Shown here: one piece after another, positions 2,716 through 8,550 of the stretch
Numbering within the stretch: position 1 is the stretch's first letter
How the letters are laid out: every line of letters starts with the position of its first letter
Source of the DNA: Gemmatimonadota bacterium
GTDB lineage: Bacteria; JBHIER01; G020348925
DNA: 64,000 nucleotides
Assembly (NCBI GenBank): GCA_020348925.1
Contig: CP070758.1
Coordinates: 4,773,775-4,837,774, forward strand
Reading direction: 5' to 3'
Program-made: the position numbers and the translations under genes
The notes under the pieces: model-generated
The model's database searches: none
Seen by the model: the letters and a program-made list of their open reading frames with translations, nothing else
What the model was told of the DNA's origin: nothing

Positions 2716-4680
2716 TTACGTTTCGAGAATGACGTTCACTAAGGTCATCACATCCTGAAGGTCGATGGTCCCATCCTGGTTCACATCGGCGAGTCGCTGG
2801 CGCGTCGGGGTCGGCCCGTATATGCCCAAAATGATGTTCGCTATCCGGACAAGATCGAAAACATCCAGTGTCCCATCACAATTTACATCCCCCATCTGAA
2901 CCTGGGTCTGAAACCAGCCGAAGATGCGCTGAAGCACATCCGCCCTCAGATCGAAGGACCTGGCTATGTTGTGAAATTCGACGATCGCTTCGAAGCCGAT
3001 GGCAAAATAGACGATCTTATAATTGTCAATATAACGAAGCGCCGCCGTGCGATCCGAACCGCGATAGGTGAGTACCGGATAGGCATCCTCCAGGGGTACG
3101 ATCTCGTCCGGACTGTTCTGATTGGCCGCACCGTAATCCCCGCTGACGATGGATAATAGATTCAATTGACCTGCGATGGGATCGTCCGGGACCGGATCCA
3201 GCCAGACATCGTTGCTGCTGTCGGCTACAAACTCGGCACGGAGATAGTCTCTGAGAAAGGATGAACCTTGGAGATCTGAGGCGATGTCCTGACCACTGAT
3301 GAGAAGATTTCCTCCTGCGTCCAAATACGCGGTCAGGACTGCCTCCTCCTCGGGCTTGATGGTGGGATCGGACACGCCGGTGAACCAGATGACGATGTCA
3401 TAAGCTGTCAGGAGGTCCGCAGCCGGAGTTCCGTCTGAAGGTGTGTTCCAGACATGATAGGTCTCACCCCGGTCATATAGGGCCATAGTGTAGAATTTTT
3501 CGGCATTGTAGCCCCAGGGAAGAGCTGAAGGGGAGTGGTCGTCGTTGACGATGAGGATATCCGGTTTGCCGATAAGGATCTCGATCACCTCTCGGGATGA
3601 AGCCTGGCCCCCGTTGGCCCTGACCGTGACGGTTAGATGCGTGTAGTGGACCTCCACGTTCTGACTGACCTGGAGTACAAGGGGTGCGGTGGCGTTGTCG
3701 ACTGTGGAGTTGAGGGGGATGTCCTCGAGTTGGACGTCAGAGGTGAGGATTGAGATATCGGGATCGTCGCTGGTCAGCGTAGCCGAGACGCCTGTGGCCA
3801 GAGGTCCGTAATTTCTGACAGAGAATGTTACGTCGACCATCTCACCCATCTCGAAGTTGGAGTCGCCGTCACCTCCGGTGTCGAGAAGATCCAAGTCGAG
3901 AATTGAGACGGCTGTGAAGATTCGGGACTTTGTTGCCTGGATCACTTCGAAGGTCGAGGTGTCTTGGACGAAGACGACGAAGCCGCAGTGTTCGGGTATC
4001 CATTCGGGATCGAGGGTAAAATTTCGAGAGATATCGAGGGACTGGCCCTCTTGGATGGAGAAGGGCTGGCCGTTGCCGTCAGGGTACATTTTCCGCATGA
4101 CGTGGTCATGGAGCAGAAGCCCGTTCGAGGCCTCGTATTCGATTTCGGATTCGGTCAGGACGAATTGAATGACGACGTCCGGAGAAGAGATCTCCTCCGA
4201 AGATGTAATGTGCGCCTGAACCCTCTCGTCCGATCCGTCGAGATCGAAGCCGAGGGTCATCTCCAGCGGAATCTCTTGTTGACTTCTCTGTTCCAGCAGA
4301 GCAACCCATAACTCCCAGGGATCGTCCATGTCGTAGGCATCATCGTCACCGACCCCGTCGAAAAAGAGGCGGGGCACGTACCACACCTTTTCCCCACTGT
4401 GTTCGGGATAGAAATCGACTCGCGCCTCGTTTTCTTCCCTGTTCGCGTTGTAGAAGGGATCGCTCGGGGACGGCCACCAGACGTGGTAGGAAATGAGGGC
4501 CAGATCTTCAGCGTTCAGCTGTTCAAGGACCGCCACACGGGGGTCCGCCTCCGCACAGCCCCGTCACGACGTGTTGGTGAAAAGCTCTCCCAGGACCATG
4601 CGCCGGGCTGCACCCACAGGGCCGGAGAGAGCACAAGAAAGAGACAGCGAAAGAACGAAGGCGGCCATGCTTCGTGTCAT
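2716..4680 (-). CDS. Secreted Omp28-like (thioredoxin-fold) protein with Ig-like, alpha/beta and C-terminal dockerin domains; predicted selenoprotein (Sec39, URGC), 654 aa
   Basis: ATG 4680 gives signal peptide MTRSMAAFVLSLSLSCALSGPVGA, then RRMVLGELFTNTS-TGA(4564-4566)-RGC, in frame with track ORF 2716..4536. Omp28-like motifs YHVWWP..DPFY, YVPRLFFDG, HDHVMRKM. Dockerin GDVNCDGTLDVFD...ADVNQDGTIDLQD. Confidence 0.88.
4527..4546 (-). promoter_or_regulatory. Putative bacterial SECIS hairpin
   Basis: mRNA GGACC-C-CC-GUGU-GG-C-GGUCC; G-initiated 4-nt apical loop 25 nt after the UGA; identical in the paralog. Confidence 0.75.
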
Positions 4681-4737
4681 GGCCGCCTTGTCTCTTTGAA
4701 TCCAAAAGAGGTGAAAAGAAAATTTCATAGACCTCCA

Positions 4738-6690
4738 TTAGCCGCCCAGAATGATGTTTACCAGGACGATGGCGTCAATGATGTTGATGGCTCCGTCTTC
4801 GTTCACATCAGCCGCCCACGCCTGACCGGGTGTCGGCTGGTGCGTTCCCAAGACGATGTTCACCACCCAGACCACATCAATGATGTCGACGTTCCCGTTT
4901 TCATTCACATCGCCGATCTGAGGCTCAAACTCAAACCAGTCGAAAATTCTCTGAAGGAAATCCGCCCGCATATTGAAGGAATTGGCCACATCGTAGAATT
5001 CGACGAGCGACTCGAACCCAAAGGCGAAGTAGACGAGTCGGTAGTCGTTCATGTACCGGAGAGCTGCCGTACGGCCGGAGTTATAGTACGTAAGTATGGG
5101 CATAGCATCTCCGAGAGGCGCTATCTCGTCCGGGCTGTCCTGGTTGGCCGCCCCGTAATCGCCGCTGGCGAGGGACAGCATGCTCAATTCGCCTGTGATC
5201 GGGTCAGCCGTGGGATTGAGCCAGATGTCGCTGCTGCTGTCGGCCACAAACTCGGCGTGGAGGTAATCGCTGAGAAAGGATGATCCCTGAAGATCGGAAG
5301 CGATATCCTGACCACTGATGATGAGGTTTCCGCCTGCATCGAGATAGGCCGTCAGGACGGCCTCGTCCTCAGGTGTGATGGTGGGATCGGAGGCGCCGGT
5401 GAACCAGATAACGATGTCATAGGATAGCAGGACGTCAGCCCCCGGGGTCTCTACCAATGTGGTGTTCCAGACGTGATAGGTCTCATCCCGGTCGTAGAGG
5501 GCCATTTTGTAGAACCCCTCTGCGTTGTAATCCCAGGGGAAGACCGCAGGGATGTGGTCATCGTTGACGATGAGGATGTTGGGCTTGCCGACGAGGATCT
5601 CGATCTCCTCCTCAAAGGTGACCTGGCCGCCGTTGGCCGTGAGGGTGATGGTTATATCGGTGAAGTGGACCTCAACGTCCTGGCTGACCTGGAAGACGAG
5701 AGGAACAGTTGTATTGTCGACCGTGCCGTTGAGGGGGATGTCGTCGAGCTGAACGTCAGAGGTGAGGATGGAGACGTCTGGATCGTCACAGGTGAGCGTG
5801 GCCGAGACGCCTGTGGCCAAAGGACCGTAATTTCTCACGGAGAAGGTGACGTCCACGCTTTCCCCCTGCTCGAAGTTGCCGTCGCCATCTCCTCCGGAGT
5901 CGATGAGGTCGTATTCGATCACTGAGACCGAGGTGAGGATCCTGGATTTTGTGGCTTGGATGACCTCAAAGGTGGCATTGTCCTGGACGAAGACGACGAA
6001 GCCGCAGTGTTCGGGCATCCAACCGGGATCGAGGGTAAAATCTCGGGAAATATCAAGGTGTTGACCCCCTTGAATAGTGAAAGGTTCGCCGTTGCCGTCC
6101 GGGTACATTTTTCGCATGACGTTGTGATGGATATTGGAGCCGTTTGTCGCCTCATACGCGATCTCTGATTCGGTGAGGACGAAGTGGATGACAACATTCG
6201 GAGCATCGAGGGTCTGTTCAGCAGTGATGTGAGCATGGACGGTGCCGTTCGTACCGTCGAAATCGAAATCGAGGGTCATCTCCAGGGGACTCTCCGTCAG
6301 ATTCCTGTCGGTTATCATGTTGGGCCAGGTGTCATCGTCGTACAAGTATTGGCCGTCGATGAAACCATCGAAGAACATACGCGGAACGTACCAGCCACCT
6401 TCAATAGGATCGTCCGGGTAGAAATTGATTCTCCCCTCGTTCTCTTCGACATTGGCCAAGTAGAACGGATCATCATCGCCCGGCCACCATCCGTGAAACT
6501 CGATGAGGGCCAGGTTTTCAGCGTTGCTCTGATCAAGGACCGCCACACGGGGGTCCGCTTCTCCGCAGCCGCCTCACGATGTGTTCGTGAAGTACTCGCC
6601 CAGGACCATCCGCTCTGCGGATTGTGCCTGGTAGGAGAGAACGGAGACGAGGGCAACTGTGAAGATGAGTCCAATGATCGCCCTTTTCAT
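4738..6690 (-). CDS. Secreted Omp28-like (thioredoxin-fold) protein with dockerin, paralog 2; predicted selenoprotein (Sec39, UGGC), 650 aa
   Basis: RBS GGAGGAGG, ATG 6690, signal peptide MKRAIIGLIFTVALVSVLSYQAQS, then ERMVLGEYFTNTS-TGA(6574-6576)-GGC, in frame with track ORF 4738..6546. Dockerin GDVNENGNVDIID...ADVNEDGAINIID. Confidence 0.9.
6537..6556 (-). promoter_or_regulatory. Putative bacterial SECIS hairpin
   Basis: Same GGACCCCCGTGTGGCGGTCC hairpin at the same 25-nt distance from UGA to loop. Confidence 0.75.
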
Positions 6691-6746
6691 GGTCACCTCC
6701 TCCTTGTGATAGGGTGAAACGTGAAACAGAAACCCCACACCACACC

Positions 6747-6932
6747 TCATCCACCCAGAATAATATTGACGAGAACGACGGCATCAACAATATTGACCGC
6801 GCCGTCCTCATTCACATCCGCCGCCCAGCTTTGTCCGGATGTCGGGGCGTGTGTTCCCAAGATGATGTGGAGAGGGAACAGAGCGGCCGTAACGACCAGC
6901 GCGAGCAGGAGCATAATCACCCTTCTTAAGAT
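6747..6932 (-). pseudogene. Internally deleted third paralog: signal peptide fused to the last ~40 aa of the dockerin
   Basis: AAAGGAGG followed by ATC-TTA (no canonical start at normal spacing). LRRVIMLLLALVVTAALFPL is joined directly to HIILGTHAPTSGQSWAADVNEDGAVNIVDAVVLVNIILGG, which closely matches the C-terminus of 4738..6690. Confidence 0.7.
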
Positions 6933-6989
6933 CGTGCCTCCTTTCGTAAAGAGGTGGGTTGATTGTATCAACGGCTGTAACGAAAACCG

Positions 6990-8450
6990 TTACAGCCTAC
7001 TGAATAATTTGACTTCAATACCTTCAAACTCGGGTTCGAGGCGACATACGCCACCGGCGCAGAGAAAGCCGGCCTGGCGTGAACCGTACATGACAGACAG
7101 GTCATGATTCGGTGATATATTAATATCAAACTTGCCGAAAAGCCAAAGGTTTTTTTCGTCCGGCCTGTTCTGGAGTTTTTCTTGAAGGTCGGACGTGTTG
7201 GTCCACTCCCCTACGAGGCTCAAGGTGTATTTCGGAGAGTGGGCGTATTCCAGCGAGTAGATCTGGTTATCGAACTCACCCAGCAACTCCGAATCCGTGT
7301 GCTGGTGTTGGAAGACGAAGCGGAAACTGTTTACAGGATCGAGAGAATATGTGAACTCAAAAACAGGGGTGATATACGTATCCTGTCTCTGCTTTGAAAG
7401 ACCCAAGGCTCCAATAGTAAAGAAGTCGTCGCTGAAATGATGTTCTATTTCGCCATAAATCTCCTCGTACAGCGTGTTTCCTTCTCCTAAGATCGTTTTG
7501 CCCTCATGATCCTTTGTCAGGCTGTAGTTGGCGAGAAGGGACGTCTTCGGTGTGGGAGAGAAGGTGGCTTCGATCTGTATTCCGGCTTCATCATCGGCAT
7601 TCAGAAGGTACGGATGTCTGTTCAGCAATGTGTACGAATGTTCACGAATGAGAGCCGGTGGATTGTTGTATGTTACAAAATGGTCATCCGACAGGAAGAA
7701 GAAATTATGATAGTATTTGTATTCGCAACTTAATCCGAAACCTGCTGTCGTAAAACTCGTTGAGAAATAGGCTCCAGTGCCTTTAGAATTTGTCTTCTTC
7801 CCGTATTCACCGTAGAGATCCAACATCCACGTCTCCTGTGAAAGGGAAAGCTGCGTTCTCCCCGAGGTGATCTCCGCCTTCTGGCGAAGATTCGGACTGT
7901 TGCTCACATAACTGCCGCCGAATGCTACTCCATCCAACAGATTCAGGTTAAGATCAGCCCCATGTATCAGGTCTGTCCTTTGATCTGAAGGGCCTTCGGG
8001 TCTGCCGGAGAGAAAGGTGGCTGAAAGCCGATCGTAGCTGACATCGAACTTCACCCCTTCCAGATTATTATCGACACGGATATCACGATCCTCGTATGTG
8101 CGAAGGGTCATTCCTCTACCGAACATGGCGTAGTAATTACCGACGCGAGCCTGGATATTATCGTGATGATATTCAAAATAACGAAAGGTGATCCCCTCTT
8201 CCACAGGGTCAGTCCCGGGGAACTGTAAGGATGGGTCTTTGGGCTGATAGAGCTCCATTCTCAATCCTGCGGTGAAATTGTCGAAGTAGAAGTCGGCATC
8301 GAGCCAGTTCTCGAGAATCTCATCGTTCGTCTCTGTGGAAAAGGAGTATTCCATGTGGTTGGCCAGGCTGGTCGTCAGACCGCCAAACATCTGGGCCTTG
8401 AGTGGCAGAGACAATGCCGTGAGTACCATCAGCATGAATACAAGCAGGAA
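6990..8450 (-). CDS. DUF6029-like outer-membrane beta-barrel protein (N-terminus at contig edge)
   Basis: Signal peptide remnant FLLVFMLMVLTALSLPLKA, amphipathic strands, RVGNYYAMFGRGMTLR and C-terminal GSRQAGFLCAGGVCRLEPEFEG (CxGGVCR), which I recognise as DUF6029-family motifs. Confidence 0.75.
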   Translation of the reverse strand, partial: FLLVFMLMVLTALSLPLKAQMFGGLTTSLANHMEYSFSTETNDEILENWLDADFYFDNFTAGLRMELYQPKDPSLQFPGTDPVEEGITFRYFEYHHDNIQARVGNYYAMFGRGMTLRTYEDRDIRVDNNLEGVKFDVSYDRLSATFLSGRPEGPSDQRTDLIHGADLNLNLLDGVAFGGSYVSNSPNLRQKAEITSGRTQLSLSQETWMLDLYGEYGKKTNSKGTGAYFSTSFTTAGFGLSCEYKYYHNFFFLSDDHFVTYNNPPALIREHSYTLLNRHPYLLNADDEAGIQIEATFSPTPKTSLLANYSLTKDHEGKTILGEGNTLYEEIYGEIEHHFSDDFFTIGALGLSKQRQDTYITPVFEFTYSLDPVNSFRFVFQHQHTDSELLGEFDNQIYSLEYAHSPKYTLSLVGEWTNTSDLQEKLQNRPDEKNLWLFGKFDINISPNHDLSVMYGSRQAGFLCAGGVCRLEPEFEGIEVKLFSRL

Positions 8451-8550
8451 NNNNNNNNNNNNNNNNNNNNNNNNNNNNNNNNNNNNNNNNNNNNNNNNNN
8501 NNNNNNNNNNNNNNNNNNNNNNNNNNNNNNNNNNNNNNNNNNNNNNNNNN
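8451..8550. other. 100-N spacer (contig join)
   Basis: Exactly 100 N. Confidence 0.97.

Follow-up and report, generated by a model that had tools for sequence, protein, structure and literature searches.

Within a 64,000-nt window of contig CP070758.1, which supplies all window positions given here, four open reading frames (ORFs) lie in tandem with gaps of 56-60 nt: a gene for an outer-membrane beta-barrel of the DUF6029 family (6990-8450), a 60-codon ORF (6747-6929) and two paralogous genes, par2 (4738-6690) and par1 (2716-4680), which are predicted to encode selenoproteins. All genes of this locus are on the minus strand. Read with TGA as selenocysteine (Sec, U), par1 has 654 codons and ends at a TAA stop, while par2 has 650 codons, 67% identity to par1 and a par1-like architecture. 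Codon 39 is a TGA in both genes (par1, 4564-4566; par2, 6574-6576), and neither has a second TGA in frame; in par1 this codon number counts from the first ATG, at 4680, and becomes codon 35 from a second in-frame ATG at 4668. The TGA is the first residue of U-R-G-C in par1 and of U-G-G-C in par2, and both lie in the common motif RMVLGE(L/Y)FTNTS-U-(R/G)-G-C. The first ~26 codons of both genes are signal-peptide-like (4603-4680 in par1, judged from the sequence), yet an alignment found them dissimilar to each other. The initial annotation had described two paralogs with a start, a signal peptide, FTNTS-TGA-xGC with the TGA at codon 39 and a frame open to a dockerin, and had remarked that the TGA was kept behind unrelated signal peptides; all of this was confirmed.

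The modules of the par1 product are, in order, the signal peptide, a UxxC-bearing Omp28/DUF1223-like domain of thioredoxin-like type (residues 27-256, 3913-4602) with U39-x-x-C42, a CARDB-like part with an unnamed alpha/beta module (residues 262-595, 2896-3897) and a type I dockerin (PF00404, residues 597-651, 2728-2892). The type I dockerin of par2 occupies residues 593-647 (4750-4914). Both heads passed the gathering score of 34.9 for Omp28 (PF11551), with 55 bits for par1 and 50.3 bits for par2. With DUF1223 (PF06764), par1 scored 35.4 bits, above the cut-off of 30.7, and par2 24.8 bits, below it. The dockerins matched Dockerin_1 at 38.1 (par1) and 47.2 bits (par2) against a cut-off of 22.9, over model positions 2-56 of 57, i.e., at full length. 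A profile built from an alignment of the heads and their homologs (alignment A3) matched the DUF1223 structure 2axo across the CxxC (E 9.2e-5) and the Omp28 structure 2r2c over the C-terminal half (E 0.001), and thioredoxins gave weak matches (E 0.011-0.85). C/U39, C42, P103 and G109 are invariant in alignment A3. Hallmarks of the thioredoxin fold are a CxxC at the start of helix 1 and a cis-Pro loop, and the stretch ...YVPRLFFDG... of the head resembles a cis-Pro strand. The heads of par1 and par2 are very probably exported, Sec-containing UxxC domains of the thioredoxin fold.

Comparison with characterized or named relatives shows how the two proteins are built differently. Omp28 of Porphyromonas gingivalis (2r2c) and the outer-membrane lipoproteins of NF033782 share with par1 and par2 the Omp28 domain, which is above the Pfam cut-off; however, par1 and par2 have Sec for Cys and a dockerin in place of the lipid anchor, and they scored only 33-37 bits against the NF033782 cut-off of 150. 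A Cys paralog in the same genome resembles these lipoproteins in its lipoprotein-like signal ...FFSCGQ, as judged from the sequence. The alignment with the DUF1223 protein 2axo (Atu2684) covers the CxxC, with ELFTSQGCASCPPAD opposite ELFT.T.C..C, but DUF1223 proteins are small and single-domain, unlike the modular par1 and par2, and par2 falls under the DUF1223 cut-off. Sec-containing thioredoxins, DsbA-like proteins and thiol:disulfide interchange selenoproteins, as far as the entries on them in a 2026 review go (PMC13188914), also have the UxxC motif with a presumed selenol attack and resolution by the Cys at the third position after Sec, whereas par1 and par2 resemble thioredoxins weakly in sequence, carry an extra Omp28-type half-domain, are modular and are predicted to be extracytoplasmic.

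The genome also encodes a third paralog, par3 (785 codons; L023:1486-3843), which is 52% identical and has a TGA at the same codon in the context ...FANNS-U-V-P-C. All 11 Cys-type homologs in alignment A3 have Cys in the TGA column, and the second Cys, C42, is invariant. The Cys-type set includes a lipoprotein-like paralog of the same genome with CEPC (P0015) and the ortholog of a sister genus with CPDC, which lies directly after the DUF6029 barrel gene of that genome; the sister genus is the only other genome of the phylum in the set searched, which held two species genomes of it. A homolog scan using one genome per species yielded 80 loci, and 22 of these contained 24 further homologs, from other phyla, with a TGA in exactly this column. 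The TGA-bearing loci are labelled Zixibacteria, Gemmatimonadota, Glassbacteria and Fidelibacterota/Marinimicrobia. The comparison of TGA with Cys in homologs that the initial annotation had called for thus came out in favour of Sec. A scan of metagenome contigs with the par1 domain found only five distant relatives (22-27% identity), none of them of this clade. In the Cys-type paralog itself (L033:2417-5019; G000:C1 about 2642416-2645018, minus strand), the Omp28 domain with CEPC is accompanied by two PEGA domains and a lipoprotein-like signal.

A quick maximum-likelihood tree was built from 83 domains (25 Sec and 58 Cys); rows of fewer than 150 residues were left out, which removed the partial ortholog of the sister genus and two Sec forms. 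On this tree, par1, par2 and par3 form their own fully supported clade. The Sec/Cys label needs eight changes, just two of which are forced by well-supported branches, and the Sec forms therefore sit in several separate clades of the family.

The genome encodes the machinery for Sec insertion. The genes selA (598.8 bits), selB (396.5 bits) and selD (372 bits) all scored over their cut-offs and are clustered at G000:C1:2516704-2521550, and selD has one in-frame TGA of its own, as it does in both genomes of the phylum. A tRNA-Sec was found at 65.8 bits, over the cut-off, and ARAGORN likewise called a tRNA-SeC with the anticodon TCA. All the components whose presence the initial annotation had proposed to verify are therefore there, including a Sec-containing SelD. 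TGA is otherwise the commonest stop of the genome, closing 572 of the 1400 open stretches of at least 400 codons, which rules out a genome-wide reassignment of TGA; the Cys-type paralog, for its part, terminates at a TGA where its homologs end.

A candidate Sec insertion sequence (SECIS) hairpin, GGACC.CC[GUGU]GG.GGUCC, lies 20-39 nt after the U of the UGA in par1 (4527-4546), and an identical copy is present in par2 (6537-6556), with the GUGU loop at +28. The 27-nt piece that begins at +18 has a fold energy of -11.3 kcal/mol in both genes (z about -2.1), which 8/200 and 6/200 shuffles matched. bSECISearch reportedly asks for a G in the apical loop and a loop 16-37 nt from the UGA, and the SECIS of E. 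coli fdhF has the loop GGUC. Two findings speak for an RNA element here. The 8-codon window starting at codon 45 was the best of 790 for codons identical in all three paralogs (6/8, against a baseline of 109/293 same-residue columns overall), and it contains the second-longest identical-codon run between par1 and par2. A 9-bp hairpin containing one compensatory pair is common to six Zixibacteria-type sequences at columns 19-40, and the hairpin of the par clade is at the same place; four Fidelibacterota-type sequences have a 7-pair hairpin at columns 13-31, a few bases nearer the UGA, with three compensatory pairs. Family-wide comparisons agree with this: 23/27 Sec forms but 19/58 Cys forms had a single hairpin that reached at least the stability of -7.5 kcal/mol, at least one of the first two loop bases was G in 20/27 versus 13/58, and the mean fold energy was -13.8 versus -8.2 (Mann-Whitney p = 3e-7). 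These figures are overstated because related sequences are not independent.

Several results, most of them on this hairpin, weigh against the interpretation of par1-par3 as selenoprotein genes with a SECIS. Folds of 57-67 nt after the UGA were no better than shuffles in par1 and par2 (z -0.49 to +0.38), and the local fold of par3 reached only -6.6 kcal/mol (z -0.13). No compensatory change was found among the three paralogs, two pairs are broken in par3, and an alternative longer hairpin, at +6 to +38, shares the 3' arm with the candidate. Rfam gave no SECIS or other relevant family, either at gathering scores over the whole window or, with E values of up to 10 allowed, over 4400-6700. Amino-acid constraint or gene conversion could account for part of the identical tract in par1 and par2. 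Of the conserved SECIS hairpins described in the initial annotation, what stands is a hairpin that is present and identical in par1 and par2, but the longer folds behave like shuffles and Rfam has no match; the GUGU hairpin is a plausible, unproven SECIS. A further point of this kind is the sister genus, whose ortholog has Cys although selA and a Sec-type selD are present. Loss of the Sec machinery is thereby ruled out as the cause of its Cys, and Sec is therefore not essential to the function of the protein and represents an optional upgrade.

The best NCBIfam match of par1 and par2 was NF045500, "Omp28-related selenoprotein". Their scores of 39.7 and 48.8 bits remain far under its cut-off of 200, which speaks against a straightforward assignment, and a search of the whole genome with this model gave no match over 200. 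Fidelibacterota-type proteins reached ~176 bits with Sec read as Cys, the Zixibacteria, Gemmatimonadota, par-clade and one further lineage 37-65 bits, and one Sec form (L101) did not match the model. NF045500 corresponds to the "hypothetical protein GOS_C" in Table 1 of the 2026 review (PMC13188914). The passages on GOS_C in Zhang and Gladyshev 2008 (PMC2398784) give 74 Sec sequences and 312 Cys homologs and describe a Trx-like fold, a UxxC motif, SECIS-like elements and a function not known. Aligned over 252 residues, the par1 domain and a GOS_C-like protein share 29% identity (E 3e-27). The likeness extends to the UxxC at the same column of a Trx-like/Omp28-like domain, secretion, the existence of Cys homologs and a hairpin after the UGA; the C-terminal part of the NF045500 model is dockerin-like, as in par1 and par2, and matches dockerin regions of the source genome. 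However, par1 and par2 carry an extra ~330-residue module between head and dockerin, their hairpin has the loop GUGU at +28 instead of a GOS_C-type GGA at about +20, and the par paralogs form a separate, fully supported clade in a thinly sampled phylum, represented by two species genomes in the set searched. Given the low NF045500 scores and the prediction of selenoproteins in this family in 2008, par1, par2 and par3 are, by their sequences, divergent new members of the GOS_C/NF045500 family and not a new kind of protein.

The suggestion of the initial annotation that the family may be largely unrecognised therefore does not hold, as it has both a model name and a prediction dating from 2008. 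A PMC/bioRxiv literature search, with supplementary datasets (which may hold closer relatives) outside its reach, found nothing linking a selenoprotein with Omp28, no Sec forms of DUF1223 and nothing relevant on a selenoprotein with a dockerin. The claim in the same annotation that gene callers truncate these proteins was borne out. The protein database has the two window genes only as 606- and 602-aa forms starting MAVL... (P0017 and P0020), and all 11 other close relatives listed start just past the TGA site (MAVLEQ, MVVLE, MDPRVAVL, VRVLEQ) or further downstream, so that the calls are truncated in 13/13 close database relatives. In a domain-profile search, 18 of the best 150 cluster representatives begin 5-25 residues past the CxxC position, probably as mis-called Sec forms, although some may be fragments. 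The NF045500 cut-off of 200 misses most Sec forms of the wider Omp28/DUF1223-like family, and public calls therefore still drop the signal peptide and the active site.

These truncated forms are what would be made if the TGA were a real stop, with a product starting at GTG 4536 (par1) or 6546 (par2) that lacks the signal peptide and the active site, or if the genes were pseudogenes. In favour of this, the automatic predictions correspond exactly to the 606- and 602-aa forms, the genome uses TGA as a stop more often than any other codon and the SECIS is unproven. However, the 38 codons upstream of the TGA give a signal peptide and a conserved first strand, RMVLGE.FTNTS, that aligns with homologs, and a signal-less dockerin protein makes no sense. 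The TGA column also recurs in the three paralogs and in 24 homologs of other phyla, always at the first Cys of the invariant CxxC, and we regard termination there as extremely improbable. The TGA is equally stable across independent sequence data. Logan contigs from two sequencing runs, X1 and X7, of which X7 belongs to a different study, retain it at 4564-4566, and an X1 contig (record 6) spans the par2 TGA at 6574-6576 unchanged; the runs containing the sequence are labelled sediment metagenomes, and no RNA run was listed among them. The X7 contig has seven differences in 249 nt, including 4558 G>C, read as synonymous at codon 41, and a variant strain that keeps the TGA near such a change again argues against a stop. 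The initial annotation had pointed to an assembly or sequencing error for TGT or TGC as what would overturn its proposal; with the TGA in three paralogs and kept in contigs of two studies, the chance of such an error is negligible.

If the UGA is translated, it might still be read without selenium, by a near-cognate or suppressor tRNA inserting Cys, Trp or another residue, to give a full-length protein that is not a selenoprotein. The lack of covariation in the par-clade hairpin, its weakness in par3 and the sister genus working with Cys would fit this explanation. We consider it very improbable, since the genome has the complete Sec machinery including the Sec-containing selD and since the TGA sits exactly at the redox Cys, the typical pattern of Sec/Cys pairs. 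Downstream hairpins are also commoner in Sec than in Cys forms, with compensatory pairs in two clades, and synonymous conservation peaks just past the UGA. From the observed reading frame, TGA, Cys alignment, Sec machinery and synteny we infer Sec insertion, and we put the probability that par1, par2 and par3 are genuine Sec-decoded selenoprotein genes of the GOS_C/NF045500 family at about 85%. The exported, Sec-containing UxxC proteins proposed in the initial annotation are thus very probable, with a TGA aligned to an invariant Cys, a complete Sec machinery and assembly error excluded.

As selenoproteins, the par products would be made by decoding of UGA codon 39 as Sec by the cell's own SelA, SelB, SelD and tRNA-Sec, most likely directed by a SelB-binding hairpin just downstream, for which GGACC.CC[GUGU]GG.GGUCC is the candidate. 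A cleavable signal peptide of the Sec-pathway type would then export them, placing the Sec residue about a dozen residues from the mature N-terminus. The head would most likely be an extracytoplasmic enzyme of selenol/thiol-disulfide exchange, in which Sec attacks and C42 resolves; for this proposed disulfide-exchange mechanism on its own we see a roughly even chance. In another explanation, which competes with this functional part only and not with the selenoprotein assignment, the Sec-bearing UxxC would work at the cell surface by binding or handling metals or metalloids, for instance Hg, Cu, As, Se or Te species, or polysulfide, and not as a protein disulfide oxidoreductase; the barrel would be a channel for this substrate or for the product. 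UxxC/CxxC motifs occur in metal-handling selenoprotein families in the table of the 2026 review (PMC13188914), the sequencing runs come from material labelled as sediment, the gene is paired with a porin-like barrel, and DUF1223, Omp28 and GOS_C are without known function, as the passages on them in PMC2398784 have it. The nearest solved relatives by sequence are, however, thioredoxin-fold proteins, and no metal-handling genes were found among the few neighbours checked; we consider metal handling unlikely.

The region between head and dockerin was also found elsewhere. Residues ~262-595 of par1 are common to more than 40 other proteins of the genome and also occur in metagenomic peptidase-bearing proteins. 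The structural neighbours of par1 residues 340-595 (TM-score 0.75-0.81) are unnamed regions of cargo proteins of the type IX secretion system (T9SS), which carry M6, M1 or S8 peptidase, GH18 or Omp28 heads in many phyla. Because the module is found on so many proteins, it is a general carrier and not part of the redox head. Its alpha/beta part (residues 340-595, window about 2896-3660) has no Pfam family and contains the conserved motifs IVNDDH, VIWFTG and GG.L.ISGQDI, which makes it a candidate for a new domain family. At the locus of the Cys-type paralog, the CARDB-like part and the alpha/beta module are encoded by a separate gene whose ATG overlaps the TGA stop of the Omp28-like gene (ATGA); this locus is a split form of the fusion seen in par1-par3, i.e., the two are linked by gene fusion or fission.

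Cohesin-like segments number 81 in the genome, and par1 has over 150 matches there, mostly to the dockerin; some ORFs match both cohesin and dockerin. The CARDB-like part, the alpha/beta module and the dockerin would thus together form a generic carrier of many secreted enzymes in this organism, and the dockerin probably plugs the redox head into a large cohesin-dockerin system. Dockerin enzymes of the cellulosome type have the C-terminal type I dockerin and the cohesin-rich genome in common with par1 and par2; however, the par cargo is a redox selenoprotein and not a glycoside hydrolase, and the host has outer-membrane barrels and a T9SS. The T9SS sortase PorU is encoded in the genome (738 bits). 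Whereas par3 has a dockerin and a T9SS sorting domain, par1 and par2 have the dockerin only, with no sorting domain to account for a crossing of the outer membrane. This counts against the proposed export to the surface, and the display through dockerins suggested in the initial annotation is therefore putative.

The ORF at 6990-8450 was identified as DUF6029 (PF19494) at 228.6 bits against a gathering score of 27, over model positions 29-536 of 538. It carries a Cys pair, C-A-G-G-V-C (C464 and C469; 7044-7061), near the end of the barrel that is invariant in the family: the C-x4-C is present in 24/24 alignments reaching the site and invariant in alignments of 17 and 39 rows. By the usual topology of outer-membrane barrels, the pair would lie in the last extracellular loop. 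A DUF6029 homolog adjoins an Omp28-like gene on the same strand in 27/80 loci, and also in the sister genus. The link to the upstream barrel and its Cys pair drawn in the initial annotation is supported by this conserved adjacency and by the 24/24 alignments. Tandem Omp28-like paralogs beside one barrel were seen in other phyla, as a Cys and Sec pair (L039 and L084) or as two Sec forms (L042 and L044).

The DUF6029 barrel would be a conserved partner gene, and its invariant C-x4-C a candidate docking or redox site. Set against such a partnership, the genome has only two DUF6029 genes, neither par3 nor the Cys-type paralog is beside one, and many Bacteroidota-type loci have no barrel within 3 kb. 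In addition, HHpred likened DUF6029 to Wzi-type barrels, which are polysaccharide porins, and a role in polysaccharide secretion was proposed, according to the passage on the family in PMC9603273; this likeness points to a function of the barrel other than redox. A link between the par heads and the barrel, whether physical or redox, is possible but doubtful. That the barrel and an Omp28-like CxxC/UxxC protein form a conserved two-gene redox module at the outer membrane or cell surface, with the barrel C-x4-C as docking point or redox relay, is a more speculative proposal and quite unlikely.

The remaining features of the locus concern its gaps and borders. The 60-codon ORF at 6747-6929 combines a hydrophobic N-terminus with a single dockerin repeat that closely matches the C-terminus of par2; probably it is what remains of one more tandem duplicate. 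At 4658-4689, the minus strand carries a perfect inverted repeat with 12-bp arms, AAGGCGGCCAUG/CAUGGCCGCCUU, around an 8-nt loop; each arm contains one candidate start codon of par1 (4680 and 4668), and the repeat is also terminator-like after par2. It could mask the par1 start or end the par2 transcript. The 5' end of the barrel gene reaches, and is cut by, a 100-base run of N at 8451-8550, and a second N-run interrupts the gene after the Cys-type paralog; the whole single-contig genome contains 20,500 N, and these runs may be scaffold gaps. In the 900-nt gap after par1, a 149-codon ORF on the plus strand (2206-2655) contains little besides a T9SS-type sorting domain, which scored 35.7 bits with FlgD_ig and stayed below the cut-off of CHU_C; this ORF could be the tail end of a gene that is broken or mis-framed.

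With the par clade, a selenoprotein family whose function is not known, and which was already predicted in 2008, gains a divergent and triplicated branch. The conserved pairing with DUF6029 and its invariant Cys residues is the most useful new lead toward the function of GOS_C-type proteins, and the fusion/fission link to the alpha/beta module is a second handle on it. If the two-gene redox module exists, it would span Zixibacteria, Ignavibacteria, Fidelibacterota and the source phylum, and docking on the barrel C-x4-C would take the form of a mixed selenenylsulfide or disulfide with the Trx-like head. The organism would then have a thiol-redox system that acts outside the outer membrane, here upgraded to selenium and wired into a cohesin-dockerin scaffold.

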